The notes: generated by a model from the sequence alone, not told the origin. DNA of 36,646 nucleotides from Candidatus Heimdallarchaeota archaeon (GCA_019057375.1 DXJF01000021.1:1-36646); one strand, 5' to 3'; numbered from the stretch's first letter, positions 30,505 through 36,033 are shown. Made by a program: numbers and translations.

Positions 30505-30620
30505 GTGATGAGTTGTTATCCACTTGTGTTTAGCAACAAGTGCAGTTGAATGTCTTTTGGAGAGGTCATTGTGGGTCTACACTCACTCTACGTGGATACA
30601 TCACATATCCTCCTACCCCG
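30505..30620 (-). ncRNA. Predicted omega/reRNA scaffold 3' region and right end
   Basis: Hairpins CACUUGU-N8-ACAAGUG (30542-30521) and GGAUA-N7-UAUCC (30610-30594, inside the CDS end). Position inferred from known TnpB biology; 5' limit unknown. Confidence 0.5.
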
Positions 30621-31813
30621 TTCACACGCCGTTTAGGCAATGCTTTCGGATCGCTTTTGATTAAAATATTATATGCAGCATTAACATCAGCATTGATTAG
30701 GAAACCTTGAGAAGTACGAAATAGTCCTCGGGTTGTTCTGCGTCCAGTATATATCTTTCTTTCTACAGGAAATTCATTGTCCAAAAAACTAGTTTTAGAA
30801 GTATACTCTTCTGGAATGAGCTCAACTTCAATCCCAAGCTCCTCGGCTTTGTATTTAAGTTGATTTATGATTTTATCGAAGGGGATAGCTACAAACATTT
30901 GTGTGATTTTCTTTGAAAAGTGGGCTTTTTGTTTCCATTTTTCATTGTAACCTATGATAACTTCATGCAGGTTCCTCTCTACCCATAAGTTAACTAAATA
31001 TCGAGTGAGTTTATGAACTGCATCCTTTAGTTTTTTCCTCCATTTGTCCCTAAGTTCATATAATGCAGCTCCATAATGGAGCTTATTAAACTGTTTCAAT
31101 TGATGTTTTTGCTGTTGTACATATTGTTCCTGTAGATGTTTTTGTTTTTTCATATAATATTGGATGATACTTTTGATTCCCTTCTCGTGATCCTTGATAA
31201 CAATTGGTTGATTTCCAAGGTTATCTACAAAGGTCACAAGATTGATAGATCCTAAATCTATTGCTCCTTTCCTGGTATATCTTCTTCTTTTTTTAGGTAA
31301 GGTTTTCTCATACACTAATTCGAGGGTGTACCCCACTCTTCTAGGGATAATCCTTACTTCTTTTAATTTTGCAAGGGAAGTAAACCGAGTTTTATAATAA
31401 AATCCTACTTTTTTGGGTAAGACTATCCATCCATTCTGCAGTCTCGCTTGTTGATTTGTGAAAATAGCTACCGTTTCCCCATCACTAGCTTTATAGTTAG
31501 GTGGATTAGGCATAGCAAAGAATGCTGAAGGATTTTTCTTCCACTCTTTTTTAGCTTGGAAGTAACCTTTCCAGTTCCTACACAGGAGTTTGATAGTGTG
31601 TTGGGCTGTTTGTGCTGGAAGGATTCGATAACAGTCTTCTTCCCTAAGCAAATTGTTGAGATCAAAATAAACTAGTATTTTTTTATATTTGCTTAAAGAT
31701 TGTTTTACCAGAAAATTAGCTCGATTATAGAGATTTTTAACTTGATGACAAAGTTTACTCAAAGCTTGATGATAACTGAGTTCAATACATTCTACTCTTA
31801 TTACCTTCGCCAT
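30566..31813 (-). CDS. tnpB: RNA-guided endonuclease TnpB
   Basis: N-terminal KNLYNRANF; RuvC-I AIDLG; canonical RuvC-II Glu replaced (VIIGYN); PEEYTSK; RuvC-III NADVNAAYNI; no CxxC zinc finger. Confidence 0.93.
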   Translation of the reverse strand: MAKVIRVECIELSYHQALSKLCHQVKNLYNRANFLVKQSLSKYKKILVYFDLNNLLREEDCYRILPAQTAQHTIKLLCRNWKGYFQAKKEWKKNPSAFFAMPNPPNYKASDGETVAIFTNQQARLQNGWIVLPKKVGFYYKTRFTSLAKLKEVRIIPRRVGYTLELVYEKTLPKKRRRYTRKGAIDLGSINLVTFVDNLGNQPIVIKDHEKGIKSIIQYYMKKQKHLQEQYVQQQKHQLKQFNKLHYGAALYELRDKWRKKLKDAVHKLTRYLVNLWVERNLHEVIIGYNEKWKQKAHFSKKITQMFVAIPFDKIINQLKYKAEELGIEVELIPEEYTSKTSFLDNEFPVERKIYTGRRTTRGLFRTSQGFLINADVNAAYNILIKSDPKALPKRRVNGVGGYVMYPRRVSVDPQ

Positions 31814-31949
31814 TAAATTTTTCTATAAGTGTTGACTATAAAAGCTCCCGTAATATTTTACTTAATTAGTAAGATTAAGGTGGTTTTATTATCTTTTAAA
31901 CCGATGAGAAAACAATTATTTTTATATAAGTTTCACTAAAATATTATTA

Positions 31950-32360
31950 ATGTCCGTAATAAAGTTCTTTGACGACATGGAAGTAGATAATTTTCTATGG
32001 CTCTCAGCAGCTTTTGTTATATTATTCGCTTCTGGTTTTGTAATAGGTTTCATAAGAGACCTTTTGTGGATGATAATTCTCGCAGCTTCAATCGCTGGTT
32101 TGTTCATTATTTGGTGTTCTATGTATATTATCATAAACTGGCAGGAATTGAAGAAGGAAAAGGAAATTTTGGTTGAATTACCCAGTTTTCCAGAACCAGA
32201 TTTCTGTGACATGTGCAGCAAAGAATTGGAGGGAGGAGAAAGAAAGACTGATGGTGAGTTCTTGATAATTATCTGCCCTCATTGTGAAGCTGAGAACATT
32301 GTATCAAGTGAAACTAAGATACAAGAAGTAGAAAAAACAATTGAGGAAGAAGAAGAGTAA
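31950..32360 (+). CDS. Two-TM membrane protein with C-terminal zinc ribbon
   Basis: TM hairpin, CDMC-x19-CPHC and an acidic tail; TTTATATA box near 31921; 2 bp from the next gene. Confidence 0.8.
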   Translation: MSVIKFFDDMEVDNFLWLSAAFVILFASGFVIGFIRDLLWMIILAASIAGLFIIWCSMYIIINWQELKKEKEILVELPSFPEPDFCDMCSKELEGGERKTDGEFLIIICPHCEAENIVSSETKIQEVEKTIEEEEE

Positions 32361-32362
32361 AT

Positions 32363-33607
32363 ATGTCAAGAAAATTTCCAATAGTCAAATTCTTAACTAT
32401 TACTTATTGTTTTTCGCTAATTAGCCTTTTACTGATAGAAGGATATTATATTACAAAAAATGGTAATTTTCCCAGTTTTGTGATGCTCTTCATTATTCCA
32501 CTAGTAGTTACAATTATAGTATTAGCTGCATGGATATCTAAAGGATTTAAATTATGGTTCTATAAGAAGGAAATCAATATCGAAAACAGTTTTTATGAGG
32601 TGATTGGAGTAGTATTGCTTCAAGCAGCTTATTGTTTTGGATTAACTGCAGCTTGGTATAATCTTACTTCCATAGATATAACCGCTCTCTTTGTTTATGT
32701 CTTCGCTGTTATTATTCCCACAACAATTTTCCTTATTTATTTAGTAAAATTGTTCAGTAATAAACTAGATAGAAATCAAATAATAGAAGATGATGTTGTT
32801 AAGAAATCTTCTAAGAGGCAGCTAAAGGCAAAACAAGAGATCAAACTTGATTTTGATTCTCTTATTCAACTTCCTGGTTTCACTTCAGAAAATATAATAG
32901 AAAAACTTGAACAAAGTGTTACATATGGTGTACCGATTAATCATAAGTTCTATGAGGTATTTACACGATTAAAAATAGAATATTATAGCTCTTTTAAGGC
33001 ACTTCGATTAGTCATAAAATTGAAGAGCGATTCATTACTTTCGCTAGATATACAAAGAAAAGATAGTGCTTTTACTTTTCAGAGAAATGAATTCATCATT
33101 CCTAGGTTGGCAAATGCATTTGTGTTAAATTCTCCAACCCCAAATGTTTGGGAGAGTCTTTTCAAAGACACATTACTCAAGGAGAACTTAGTACTTTTAC
33201 GCTCATATTTAGAACAGTTTTCTCTCAAAGGTCAATATATTGAAGCGATAATTTATTCTAGTAAAGCAATACTCAAAGTCCTAGACTGGGTTATAGACCT
33301 TAACCCTTCAATGGAGAAGATGTCTGGTTCAATCAAAGTTTCCAAAGCAGAAACAATGCTTTGTTATAACTGTCAGGATCCTTTTGATCCTCTTGAAGAT
33401 GTTTGTACTAAATGTGGAAGTCCTAGACCTAGATGTATTGTGTGTTTTCAAGACTTGAAACCTGAGATTGACACTGCTGTTGTAATTCTTCCTTGTTGTA
33501 AAATCTATGCTCACAAAGACCATATGATTGTTTGGTTGAGAAAGAAACCAAGTTGTCCCAATTGTCATGCGGATTTAAGCAGATGGATAAACAAAATAGA
33601 AATATAA
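32363..33607 (+). CDS. 4-TM protein with C-terminal zinc ribbon + atypical RING (paralog 1)
   Basis: CYNC-x10-CTKC-GSPRPR-CIVC-x16-CC-x4-H-x2-H-x3-W-x6-CPNC. Confidence 0.9.
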   Translation: MSRKFPIVKFLTITYCFSLISLLLIEGYYITKNGNFPSFVMLFIIPLVVTIIVLAAWISKGFKLWFYKKEINIENSFYEVIGVVLLQAAYCFGLTAAWYNLTSIDITALFVYVFAVIIPTTIFLIYLVKLFSNKLDRNQIIEDDVVKKSSKRQLKAKQEIKLDFDSLIQLPGFTSENIIEKLEQSVTYGVPINHKFYEVFTRLKIEYYSSFKALRLVIKLKSDSLLSLDIQRKDSAFTFQRNEFIIPRLANAFVLNSPTPNVWESLFKDTLLKENLVLLRSYLEQFSLKGQYIEAIIYSSKAILKVLDWVIDLNPSMEKMSGSIKVSKAETMLCYNCQDPFDPLEDVCTKCGSPRPRCIVCFQDLKPEIDTAVVILPCCKIYAHKDHMIVWLRKKPSCPNCHADLSRWINKIEI

Positions 33608-33655
33608 AAAAAGGAGTAAATATTATTAATAAATAGAAAAAGAGGAGTTGACAAA

Positions 33656-34585
33656 ATGGTTGATTATACTGATTTTTTGTATTTAATTATACTAGTTGTT
33701 ATAGCTTTTATTGCAATTCCTGTAAGTAGAGCACGCAAAAAAAAGAGATTAGATAGAGCTAGAAGACCAACGTATGTTAGCTATACACAACCACAACCGA
33801 CATATTCTGCTTATCAACAAAAACTCCAGATTGATTTCAACCGAGTTCTAAGAATTCTAAAAATATCTGATGATTCAAACGTTGATAGAGCATTAAATGG
33901 AATACAAGTAAAAATTCCTGTTGATAATCCATACTCTCTTTTTTCAGATATTAAGATAATCCAACATCGGAATAATGCTATTAAGATCTATGCAACCTTA
34001 TCCAAAGTAATTCCTTCCGATTTGGAAGTGAAGAATAAACAAAAGGTTTTTTCATCGGGTATAAATGAGATCCGCGTTCCTCAACTAGCTAATGTGTATT
34101 CTGTTTCTACTGAAAAAGGAGAAATGTGGGAAAACATTCTTGCAATAAATAAATCTGTAGACCATCTTTTGTCCTTACAAAATGAATTGGAATATTTTTA
34201 TCTAAAAGAAGATTATTTTGAAGCTGTAGTTTATTCTGAAACAGGTGTTGTTAGTGTTCTGAATTTTATCAAGTTTTTACATTTCAATGTTAAAAATCTC
34301 TTTGTTGATATGAAAGAGTATGATGTAGAGCAATTGAAGTGTTACAATTGTGAGGATCCTTTTGATCCTCTAGAGGAGGAATGTGATAAGTGTTCAGCAC
34401 CCCGCCCTCGATGTTTAATCTGCTTCCAAGATTTGAAACCTTCAGAAAAACAAGAGGTTGTTCAATTGCCGTGTTGTAAGATTTATTCTCACAAAGAACA
34501 CATCCTCACTTGGTTAAAGAAGAATAAGAAATGTCCAAACTGTCATGAAGACATAAGTCATTGGGCAAAAAAACTTATGCTTTGA
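33656..34585 (+). CDS. Single-TM protein with C-terminal zinc ribbon + atypical RING (paralog 2)
   Basis: TM followed by RARKKKR; identical Cys/His spacing to paralog 1. Confidence 0.9.
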   Translation: MVDYTDFLYLIILVVIAFIAIPVSRARKKKRLDRARRPTYVSYTQPQPTYSAYQQKLQIDFNRVLRILKISDDSNVDRALNGIQVKIPVDNPYSLFSDIKIIQHRNNAIKIYATLSKVIPSDLEVKNKQKVFSSGINEIRVPQLANVYSVSTEKGEMWENILAINKSVDHLLSLQNELEYFYLKEDYFEAVVYSETGVVSVLNFIKFLHFNVKNLFVDMKEYDVEQLKCYNCEDPFDPLEEECDKCSAPRPRCLICFQDLKPSEKQEVVQLPCCKIYSHKEHILTWLKKNKKCPNCHEDISHWAKKLML

Positions 34586-34621
34586 TAAAAAATTTGAATT
34601 TAAGAAAAAAGTTGGGAATAA

Positions 34622-35551
34622 TTGATGCGGGACCTAGATCAAACCATTTTAGGAGTAATACTTGCAGTTGTTTCTGGAATTGTTCTAGTCTTTTTTGCCC
34701 TATTTTACCATTTCAGATATAGAAGAAGAAAGCAACTGCATTACAAAGATACAGTAAGAAAGAAATTCTTTAAAAAAAGTCTCAGTATGAAGGAAACACT
34801 TAGCTACTTCTCGAATAATTGGGATTTATCTGGAAAACTTGTAGAAGAAGTTTACACAGATAGATATGAACATGTAGAAGAAGCATATATTTTCAACATT
34901 GAAGAATCGCATAAACTCTCTTCCTTTTCTAAAATAAGATTAACAGTTGAAGATGGAAAATATATTAGAATTCGAGCTAGTTGGAGAGAATCTATACCGT
35001 ATTCTATAGATTTTAGAGCTAAAAAAAGCAATATTGAATGGTATTTGTTAGGAATAGAAATACCAGTAATGAGTGAAGTGTACAGAATTTTTACTCAATC
35101 CCCAAATATTTGGAAAAAGATTTTCAAGGATAATATTATTTTAAATCGGTTCTTAGATGTTCATAAAAGTATTGTGTTCATCTTTATAAGAGAAGAATAT
35201 GTGGAGTTACTTGTTCTTGATGAAAGAGTCGCTATTGATCTTATTTTAACAGTTCTTCTTATTGAAGAAGCTGTACGTTCTCCCACTTTAGAAACTAAAG
35301 CAACTAAAGTTGAAAAACTTAGATGCTATAATTGCAGGGATTTCATTGATCCTACTGAAGAATATTGCAATAAATGTAATTCCCCAAGACCAATTTGCAT
35401 AGTTTGCCATTTAGATCTACGAATTACAGAAATGAAGGAAATTGTTACTTTACCTTGTTGTGGAGTATATGCTCATAGATCTCACTTAAACAAATGGTTG
35501 AAAATAAAATCACAATGTCCAAACTGCTTAGCTGATATTTCAGATTGGTAG
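34622..35551 (+). CDS. Single-TM protein with C-terminal zinc ribbon + atypical RING (paralog 3)
   Basis: TM followed by RYRRRK; identical Cys/His spacing; stops immediately after the conserved final Trp. Confidence 0.9.
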   Translation: MMRDLDQTILGVILAVVSGIVLVFFALFYHFRYRRRKQLHYKDTVRKKFFKKSLSMKETLSYFSNNWDLSGKLVEEVYTDRYEHVEEAYIFNIEESHKLSSFSKIRLTVEDGKYIRIRASWRESIPYSIDFRAKKSNIEWYLLGIEIPVMSEVYRIFTQSPNIWKKIFKDNIILNRFLDVHKSIVFIFIREEYVELLVLDERVAIDLILTVLLIEEAVRSPTLETKATKVEKLRCYNCRDFIDPTEEYCNKCNSPRPICIVCHLDLRITEMKEIVTLPCCGVYAHRSHLNKWLKIKSQCPNCLADISDW

Positions 35552-35559
35552 GAGTCTAA

Positions 35560-35640
35560 ATCTTTCAACTGAATTTGAATAAACAATGGCTTGAAACAAT
35601 ACTTAAATGTCCATATTGCCTCAGAAATATTGAGAAATGA
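35560..35640 (+). pseudogene. C-terminal relic of a fourth RING paralog
   Basis: Reads IFQLNLNKQWLETILKCPYCLRNIEK-stop, with the same W-x6-CPxC spacing; in-frame stop upstream and no start. Confidence 0.6.
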
Positions 35641-35679
35641 CTTAATGAGTTTACTAGACCTGAAGAGCCTAAAGAATTC

Positions 35680-36033
35680 TCAATCTAGATATGGTATAAT
35701 ACATAGAAAGACAAGATTTTCTTTACCTGTATTTTCATATCCATGAGGTTCATCTGGTGGAACGTATAATACATCATCTTTTTTGACTTCATGTTTTTCA
35801 AAGTGAGTGAAAACCTTCCCTTCTCCGCTTAAAACATAAATCTCATGCTCTTGAGGATGACCATGTATGCCTATCTGACCACCTGGTTTGAGTTCAAATC
35901 GTCTCATAGCAAATCTTGGCGCTCCTTCTTTCTCTCTAGAAATTAACCACCTAATTGTTGTCTCTGTAGATCCGTAATCAGTTACTTCCAATTCCTCAGT
36001 TTCACTAAAATGTTTCAATTTCAGTCTAATCAC
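35680..36033 (-). CDS. Cupin domain protein
   Basis: PGG.IGIHGHPQEHEIYVLSGEG and PPDEPHGYEN metal-binding motifs; exact start uncertain (GTG 36033, CTG 36024 or TTG 36018). Confidence 0.92.
   Translation of the reverse strand: MIRLKLKHFSETEELEVTDYGSTETTIRWLISREKEGAPRFAMRRFELKPGGQIGIHGHPQEHEIYVLSGEGKVFTHFEKHEVKKDDVLYVPPDEPHGYENTGKENLVFLCIIPYLD

Follow-up and report, generated by a model that had tools for sequence, protein, structure and literature searches.

At positions 31950-35551 of a 36,646-nucleotide (nt) stretch of DNA from a Candidatus Heimdallarchaeota archaeon (GCA_019057375.1 DXJF01000021.1:1-36646; the whole stretch is hereafter called the window), the listing of open reading frames (ORFs) gives four plus-strand ORFs, genes 1 to 4, encoding proteins of 136, 414, 309 and 309 amino acids (aa), respectively (Table 1). 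Gene 1 encodes a small membrane protein with a zinc ribbon, while genes 2, 3 and 4 encode paralogs in which a transmembrane (TM) anchor is followed by a middle domain and by a C-terminal tail made of a zinc ribbon joined to a RING finger. A first-pass annotation of this DNA had described four co-directional genes separated by gaps of 2, 48 and 36 bp, and the ORF listing agrees with it. Together, the computational evidence set out below tips somewhat in favour of this Heimdallarchaeaceae-specific operon encoding a membrane-bound set of RING ubiquitin ligases (E3s).

The three paralogs are 27-30% identical to one another in pairwise comparisons over their whole length. The earlier description of these proteins, with four, one and one TM helices, a common middle domain and a shared Cys/His tail, is borne out by hydropathy scans and by an alignment of 22 family members. 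The 15 residues that follow the last TM helix of genes 2, 3 and 4 hold 3, 9 and 6 Lys/Arg, respectively, and because of these Lys/Arg-rich stretches the positive-inside rule predicts cytoplasmic C-termini, in line with the cytoplasmic RING proposed before. The tail of gene 3 retrieves those of the other two copies from its own genome by tblastn with E-values of 3.6e-38 and 6.9e-30, which places the similarity far beyond chance. The tail common to the paralogs reads C-x2-C-x10-C-x2-C-x2-P-R-P-x-C-x2-C ... P-C-C-x4-H-x2-H-x3-W-x6-C-P-x-C; every Cys, His and Trp of this motif is invariant in the 22 family members, and the proteins end about 13 residues past CPxC with no further Cys. The template-free AlphaFold2 (AF2) model of gene 3 has a mean pLDDT (predicted local distance difference test) of 81.7.

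Table 1. Predicted features of the operon and its putative promoter, with positions in the window.
Feature	Position	Strand	Content or basis
TATA-box-like element TTTTTATATAA (putative operon promoter)	31917..31928	+	22-33 nt 5' of the gene 1 ATG at 31950; consensus-level assignment only
Gene 1, 136 aa	31950..32360	+	TM hairpin, cytosolic zinc ribbon, acidic tail
Gene 1 TM hairpin (two helices)	~residues 15-63, nt 31992-32138	+	conservation, AF2
Gene 1 cytosolic zinc ribbon CxxC-x19-CxxC	C86-C112, nt 32205-32285	+	conserved Cys
Gene 2, 414 aa	32363..33607	+	4 TM, CCDC47/TtfA-like domain, ribbon+RING
Gene 2 four TM helices	residues 7-128, nt 32381-32746	+	hydropathy scan
Gene 2 CCDC47/TtfA-like domain	~nt 32840-33334	+	placed by alignment
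Gene 2 ribbon+RING	C334-C401, nt 33362-33565	+	Pfam, alignment
Gene 3, 309 aa	33656..34585	+	1 TM, Lys/Arg-rich stop-transfer stretch, disordered linker, middle domain, ribbon+RING
Gene 3 TM helix	nt 33668-33724	+	hydropathy scan
Gene 3 CCDC47/TtfA-like alpha/beta domain with long helix	residues 54-219, nt 33815-34312	+	AF2, fold matches
Gene 3 ribbon+RING	C229-C296, nt 34340-34543	+	Pfam zf-RING_2, AF2
Gene 4, 309 aa from TTG 34622, or 308 aa from ATG 34625 one codon on	34622..35551	+	
Gene 4 TM helix	nt 34646-34702	+	hydropathy scan
Gene 4 middle domain	~nt 34793-35296	+	placed by alignment
Gene 4 ribbon+RING	~residues 235-302, nt 35324-35527	+	alignment

The RING identity of the tail, already recognised in the first pass, is supported by Pfam and by profile matches to RING-H2 proteins. 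Against the zf-RING_2 model (PF13639), for which the gathering cut-off is 27.3 bits, gene 3 scores above the cut-off both as a whole protein (31.3 bits) and with its tail alone (34.5 bits), and the model matches all of the 17 tails scanned (best E 6.2e-10). In the PDB, a single tail already matches classical RING-H2 ligases, over its RING half only. A tail profile made from the last 90 aa of 17 sequences was then searched against PDB chains, and among the matches restricted to the RING half are the RING-H2 ligases Arkadia (2.7e-9), RNF165 (3.9e-9) and RNF38 (1.5e-8), with the membrane ligases synoviolin/HRD1 and AMFR lower in the list. In this search the RING-H2 ligase score is 40 bits over 54 residues, as compared to 27.6 bits over 70 residues for GATOR2; the RING half, taken alone, is closest in sequence to classical RING-H2 ligases. 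Of the RING ligands, 1, 2, 5, 7 and 8 occupy their expected positions; His stands at ligand 6, and Lys at the usual position of ligand 4. An Ile/Val two residues after the first Cys, W286 and P294 (gene 3 numbering) are conserved in 22 sequences, the latter two without exception; these are the Ile/Val, the Trp four residues after ligand 6 and the Pro of CPxC, which we take to be E2-contact positions in RING-E2 structures.

The window was described before as holding no gene for an E1 (ubiquitin-activating enzyme), for an E2 (ubiquitin-conjugating enzyme) or for ubiquitin, and this is correct; elsewhere in the genome, on other contigs, there are four E2-like genes (UQ_con) and a ubiquitin gene, with one E2-like gene adjoining the ubiquitin gene and another adjoining the gene of a different RING protein. 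On contig C97 (loci L007/L021), a 367-aa RING protein is encoded about 1.7 kb from one of the E2-like genes. According to a preprint, an Asgard cascade of E1, E2 and RING E3 has been reconstituted in vitro (bioRxiv 10.1101/2023.07.25.550441). E3 function is favoured for the operon because of the E2-like and ubiquitin genes of this genome, the activity of the Asgard cascade in vitro and the conservation of the Ile/Val, Trp and Pro residues.

The middle domain, which the first-pass annotation overlooked, was assigned by fold. The gene 3 model was compared exhaustively with 48,161 solved chains, and the top match of its middle domain is mycobacterial TtfA (Z 11.9 over 146 residues). CCDC47-range chains from three translocon structures (multipass, SND3 and TMCO1) come after it, at Z 8.8-11.6 over 150-159 residues, and type III secretion chaperones represent the next fold, at Z of about 6. 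The comparison does not name the chains; chain 4 or 7 of the translocon entries is assigned to CCDC47 here by the residue ranges (159-401) and by the published account of this protein as having a single TM segment, a large globular part in the cytosol and, at its C-terminus, a coiled coil contacting the ribosome (PMC7505659). A search of the ESM Atlas returned CCDC47, TtfA and DUF3137 clusters, together with a cluster of bacterial proteins joining DUF3137 to Prok-RING_1. Known members of the CCDC47/TtfA fold are membrane-tethered protein-binding modules, and for this reason the middle domain of the operon proteins is proposed to select a client or partner. In place of a basic helix, residues 195-217 form a hydrophobic one, so that ribosome binding of the CCDC47 type is not implied. 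Genome-wide scans with PF11335 and PF07946 match other ORFs only, PF28092 having been included in the general Pfam scan only, and hhalign gave a probability of 1% between the middle domain and the CCDC47-like ORF of the same genome. In the literature searched, no paper pairs CCDC47 with TtfA and none on DUF3137 is relevant here. At a separate locus of the genome (L037:1483-2400, minus strand; G000:C64 ~35050-35970), a 305-aa protein starts with a TM helix, continues with a globular domain and ends in a very basic coiled coil of Lys/Glu/Arg. It matches Pfam CCDC47 below threshold (E 6.7e-4, positions 77-316 of 326), its gene adjoins that of a small Ras-like GTPase, and the protein may be an Asgard counterpart of CCDC47, the subunit of the PAT complex.

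Gene 1 was likewise overlooked as a conserved core partner. Its 46 homologs are all at least 61% identical and all from Heimdallarchaeaceae, with ELPSFP and the four Cys among the invariant residues, and a protein-atlas look-up gave unnamed clusters only. In the AF2 model (mean pLDDT 66), the TM hairpin reaches 82-86 while the ribbon lies at about 51 and the tail near 50. In every relative fetched, gene 1 stands directly upstream of the RING gene or genes, and it is 97, 90 and 82% identical in relatives whose RING genes are 62-89, 53-81 and 50% identical, respectively; by this measure, it is the most conserved member of the operon. It is the ancestral companion of the RING protein and would probably act as a fixed subunit or regulator. 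For the single pairing modelled, gene 3 with gene 1 (both supplied as alignments), the predicted complex scored 0.00 against a mark of 0.32, which weighs neither way on binding.

The flanks of the block are conserved: in every relative fetched, two luciferase-like monooxygenase genes, the block, a cupin gene and then methyltransferase genes follow one another. The closer relatives L017, L018 and L019 share all four genes with the window, and in the more distant L013 and L014 gene 1 is accompanied by only one RING gene; orthologs of gene 2 with 414-415 aa are present in relatives. A maximum-likelihood tree places genes 2, 3 and 4 in three different clades, all of them well supported and containing orthologs from other species; gene 3 is nearest to the single-copy genes of the distant relatives, and the clade of gene 4 sits on a long stem. 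On the basis of this synteny and tree, the core unit consists of gene 1 and one RING protein, with the three paralogs derived from tandem duplication that predates the species splits within the genus. Gene 4 departs from its paralogs by PRPI in place of PRPR and by a Leu that replaces the His following CPNC, and its helix before the ribbon (residues 196-214) is hydrophobic enough to score as a TM segment; in view of these features and of its long stem, gene 4 may have diverged in function. As the TATA-like element TTTTTATATAA precedes gene 1 and GAGGAG stands before gene 3, genes 1-4 are likely to be transcribed as one unit. Between the luciferase-like gene and gene 1, just upstream of the putative operon promoter, a TnpB/IS605 OrfB-type ORF lies on the minus strand (30566-31813; Pfam OrfB_IS605 and Cas12f1-like TNB), which is taken as a recent insertion since the relatives L017 and L019 have no gene at that position.

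All named homologs of the operon proteins belong to Candidatus Heimdallarchaeota or Heimdallarchaeaceae. Of the 24 other genomes in the window's genus, 22 have the family by the full-length profile, with 1-5 copies each, and so does one neighbouring genus, beyond which the profile matches the tail only; in a library of 1.84 billion representatives, 39 matches at E ≤1e-30 are essentially the full-length family, out of 576 at E ≤0.001. At E ≤1e-8, the 90-aa tail profile has matches in 281 of 400 Asgard genomes, spread over 61 of the 85 genera, and the highest copy number in a genome is at least 13. The ribbon and a RING with H-x2-H-x3-W are present in 87 of 113 lower-ranked representatives, nearly always 5-28 residues from the C-terminus, and the carriers include multi-span membrane proteins, surface-repeat proteins, winged-helix arrays, a Kelch propeller and a helicase. 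When the long carriers were scanned for a propeller-solenoid architecture, one was found to have a Kelch propeller with winged-helix/PCI-like repeats, the rest having surface repeats, a beta-helix or winged-helix arrays. A search for longer module proteins by shared 5-residue words gave named matches that are all from the Heimdall group, and is uninformative on eukaryotes. Since its carriers are so diverse and spread over so many Asgard genomes, the tail is best described, on profile matches, as a portable module across the phylum, of which the operon family represents one recent, local use. The Asgard-wide survey that had been envisaged for the operon thus comes out divided, with the three-paralog form confined to one genus and the ribbon+RING module distributed phylum-wide.

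Several other carriers illustrate this range. In the representative library, P0111 (901 aa) combines a Kelch beta-propeller, PCI/winged-helix-like repeats and a C-terminal ribbon+RING, and is the nearest to a propeller-bearing carrier of the module among the proteins examined. In the genome of the window, a 905-aa protein (L039:342-3059, minus strand; G000:C12:76141-78858) ends in ribbon+RING after about 800 N-terminal residues in which no domain is recognised, and is the best match of the genome to the MIOS-type Pfam model zinc_ribbon_16, with an E-value of 9.6e-5 that is below the cut-off. A superfamily-1 helicase-like protein of more than 1000 aa (L011; G000:C100) has a terminal RING with H-x2-H-x3-W and no ribbon. 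At a second locus of the same superfamily (L004:460-2757, minus strand; G000:C117), a 423-aa paralog that has a TM hairpin and the ribbon+RING stands directly before one of 323 aa, in which the hairpin and central region are the same and the zinc tail is missing.

Taken as a whole, ribbon and RING together, the tail resembles the C-terminal domains of GATOR2/SEACAT subunits and of the intraflagellar transport complex IFT-A. Whole-module matches of the tail profile among PDB chains are the IFT144-like chain 8f5o_F of Leishmania IFT-A (3.6e-7, profile positions 8-82), WDR24 (2e-5), MIOS (2.8e-4), WDR59 (4.6e-4) and human WDR19 (5e-4, positions 5-87). In structural comparison, residues 225-305 of the gene 3 AF2 model fit WDR24 715-790 with a root-mean-square deviation (rmsd) of 2.5 Å over 75 residues at 25% identity and a Z of 8.5, which is near the level that the structure-comparison tool calls common; the SEA complex chain 8adl_G gives Z 7.1, and plain RING and U-box domains Z ≤6.1. 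The likeness to the GATOR2/SEACAT tail put forward in the first-pass annotation can therefore be regarded as real and specific, given these whole-module E-values, the WDR24 alignment and the structural fit. Other ribbon+RING paralogs in the genome carry the exact WDR24 pattern C-x2-C-x4-H-x2-H-x3-W, and the operon family appears to have moved ligand 3 next to ligand 4 (P-C-C). The MIOS-type Pfam model zinc_ribbon_16 (PF17034) matched 13 of the 17 tails, with a best E of 0.0011 and all scores under 27 bits, below its cut-off, and whole-genome scans with PF17034 and zf-RING_16 (PF17120) did not report the operon genes at E ≤0.1. With Pfam models below cut-off and no propeller-solenoid body, membership of the GATOR2 families is not supported; we read the tail as remotely homologous to the C-terminal domains of WDR24/MIOS/WDR59 and IFT144, of which it is the closest prokaryotic look-alike. 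The comparison with MIOS/WDR24/WDR59, Vps11/18 and RING-H2 proteins suggested earlier comes out for GATOR2 and IFT-A over the whole module and for RING-H2 over the RING half, with neither Vps11 nor Vps18 (HOPS/CORVET) among the 60 best PDB matches of the tail profile. Of the earlier proposal of a ligase set or a forerunner of the GATOR2 module, the tail likeness and the RING are retained, but the Pfam MIOS and WDR59 cut-offs are not reached, the propeller-solenoid is missing and the RING half is nearer to RING-H2.

If the operon encodes a ligase set, the paralogs would be anchored in the membrane by one or four N-terminal helices, with their other domains exposed to the cytoplasm. There, the CCDC47/TtfA-like alpha/beta domain would most likely select a client or partner; the other exposed parts would be a long helix and a three-zinc tail, in which a C4 ribbon is packed on the RING and the ligands are arranged as C-C / C-C / H-H / C-C. 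The RING would probably recruit one of the four E2-like proteins encoded by the genome, charged with the genome's ubiquitin, and the substrates modified would be membrane-proximal. Gene 1 would serve as the fixed small subunit, and the paralogs would probably differ in their clients. What the analysis establishes is the structure of the genes, topology, folds, the profile and structure matches, distribution and synteny; ligase activity, the binding of clients through the middle domain and complexes among the four proteins are inferred.

A number of observations weigh against assigning ligase function to the operon. The whole-protein zf-RING_2 scores of gene 2 (25.5 bits) and gene 4 (23.2 bits) fall just under the cut-off. 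The invariant adjacent P-C-C must supply ligands 3 and 4, as opposed to the usual C-x-H or C-x2-C, and zinc site 2 is predicted to be unconventional. The 'linchpin' residue after the last RING Cys, which is usually Arg, is His in the family and Leu in gene 4. E1, E2 and ubiquitin genes are neither linked to the operon nor present in the window; no RNA dataset with the operon sequence was listed in a search of sequencing runs, in which the DNA datasets that carry it best are a marine sediment metagenome of 2015 and the assembly derived from it, probably the source. The identity of the middle domain is one of fold, as seen in the predicted model, and PF07946, PF11335 and PF28092 gave no match for genes 2-4 at E ≤1 in the general Pfam scan. 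Finally, the RINGs of SEACAT/GATOR2 are structural junctions, and their ligase activity is unsettled (PMC9646525).

The ribbon+RING tails may accordingly be considered as non-catalytic junctions, stabilised by zinc, through which the paralogs and perhaps also gene 1 are linked in a membrane hetero-oligomer, as Sea2, Sea3 and Sea4 are joined in SEACAT. The best whole-module matches are indeed GATOR2/SEA C-terminal domains, whose RINGs heterodimerise and are structural (PMC9646525), three tandem paralogs have been kept across species, the second locus on C117 pairs a RING-bearing with a RING-less paralog, and the usual linchpin Arg is missing. Active RING-H2 ligases nevertheless match the RING half with a much higher score than GATOR2 does, and the E2-contact Ile/Val, Trp and Pro are kept; the single RING gene of the distant relatives implies that a paralog heteromer is not ancestral, and a portable catalytic tag fits better with the occurrence of the module on more than 10 unrelated proteins per genome. 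A purely structural role of the tails, the main rival to ligase function, is thus considered unlikely. A function in translocon or ribosome quality control, in which the CCDC47-like domain would dock at the Sec translocon or the ribosome and the RING would mark stalled or misassembled nascent membrane proteins, would be in keeping with the TM anchor, globular domain and long helix, which mirror CCDC47 (PMC7505659), and with the matches to the CCDC47 chains of three translocon structures. However, the top fold match is bacterial TtfA, a lipid-transporter partner, and type III secretion chaperones match too, so that ribosome binding does not follow from the fold; the long helix is hydrophobic, unlike the basic coiled coil by which CCDC47 binds ribosomal RNA; the genome has a better CCDC47-like candidate with a basic tail, the L037 protein described above; and the middle domain shows no sequence-level similarity to CCDC47. 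A quality-control role of this kind would be highly unlikely.

A separate question is whether the resemblance to GATOR2 and IFT-A is itself convergent or generic, the tail being a common ribbon placed before a RING-H2 variant with no special link to protocoatomer proteins. Searched alone against the PDB, the ribbon gives generic matches (bL32, eL40, NZF and one C2H2 factor), the Pfam MIOS and WDR59 models remain below cut-off and miss the operon genes in the whole-genome scan, and the E-values against GATOR2 are modest, with a Z near the tool's common level. Convergence is nonetheless rather doubtful in the face of the alignment with WDR24 716-774, in which the only gap, of 4 residues, falls in the loop behind the first pair of RING Cys and both sides read C-x2-C-x10-C-x2-C-x6-C-x2-C and C-x4-H-x2-H-x3-W-L, such that the ribbon-to-RING and ligand 4-6 spacings are identical. 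The IFT144-like chain and WDR24 are the only ribbon matches that run through the linker into the RING, and with a profile cut short of the final CPxC, no RING-H2 chain in the PDB ranks as high as WDR24, MIOS, the IFT144-like chain or WDR59. The orientation of the sub-domains in the template-free AF2 model also fits WDR24, as judged by the rmsd, and paralogs in the same genome carry the exact WDR24 pattern. A bolder proposal would make the Asgard ribbon+RING the direct ancestor of the SEACAT/GATOR2 and IFT-A junction domains, serving here already as a heteromeric membrane junction between tandem paralogs, joined to a CCDC47-like docking domain and a small zinc-ribbon subunit, and prefiguring both the ligases of endoplasmic-reticulum-associated degradation and the tails that lock protocoatomer assemblies; we regard it as speculative and quite unlikely in this full form.

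That Asgard archaea have RING ligases and a ubiquitin cascade is already known, and some members of the family have been automatically annotated as 'E3 ubiquitin protein ligase'. What appears to be new is that the tail is a ribbon+RING supermodule matched otherwise only in the tails of GATOR2/SEACAT and IFT-A and placed at the C-terminus of many different Asgard proteins; that it is fused here to both a membrane anchor and a domain of the CCDC47/TtfA-like kind, an arrangement at which bacteria seem to have arrived independently, using a different type of RING; and that a small, highly conserved membrane zinc-ribbon protein is its constant companion. The literature search returned no paper linking Asgard archaea, GATOR2 and RING, or linking Asgard proteins to the GATOR2/IFT-A tail. 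If the homology is true, the domain on which protocoatomer-derived complexes depend for their cohesion would have a concrete source in prokaryotes, and there would be small, tractable proteins with which to ask whether this domain began as a ligase or as a junction. The evolutionary interest is real but moderate, because the evidence is all computational and the homology remote.

Among known systems, the operon proteins share with WDR24/Sea2, MIOS/Sea4 and WDR59/Sea3 of GATOR2/SEACAT a C4 ribbon separated by six residues from the first RING Cys pair, and the ligand 4-6 region C-x4-H-x2-H-x3-W-L with His at ligand 6. The two differ at ligands 3/4, P-C-C in the operon as opposed to C-x2-C, and in the body of the protein, which is a beta-propeller and alpha-solenoid in GATOR2/SEACAT and a TM anchor with a CCDC47-like domain in the operon. 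IFT144/WDR19 gives the best whole-module sequence match in the PDB (8f5o_F), its ribbon match running through the linker Pro into the first RING Cys, whereas its structural fit is poorer (Z 6.0, rmsd 5.9 Å), and it is a soluble propeller-solenoid protein of eukaryotic cilia while the operon proteins are membrane-anchored. CCDC47 (PAT complex), TtfA and DUF3137 proteins resemble the operon proteins in their N-terminal TM anchor, the same alpha/beta fold and a long helix, although the basic coiled coil of CCDC47 has no counterpart in the operon; bacterial DUF3137 + Prok-RING_1 proteins have the same fold joined to a RING-type finger, but one of another RING family.

Classical RING-H2 ligases, including Arkadia/RNF111, RNF165 and RNF38 as well as the membrane proteins HRD1/synoviolin, AMFR/gp78, RNF13 and ZNRF3, match the RING half with E-values of 2.7e-9 to 1e-4, and as in HRD1, gp78 and RNF13, the operon RING is predicted to be cytosolic and tethered to the membrane. 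In contrast to the operon tails, they lack a zinc ribbon packed in front and have Cys at ligand 6 and C-x-H at ligands 3/4; ligases of the HRD1 type have unrelated membrane domains, and the operon proteins are without a multi-span body resembling a retrotranslocon. The reconstituted Asgard RING E3, as described in the preprint, is encoded in a ubiquitin/ESCRT cluster and recognises its substrate through an N-terminal loop, whereas the operon proteins are membrane-anchored, unlinked to ubiquitin genes and equipped with a ribbon and a CCDC47-like domain; it works with a eukaryote-like set of E1, E2 and ubiquitin, indicating that such cascades are active in the phylum (bioRxiv 10.1101/2023.07.25.550441).

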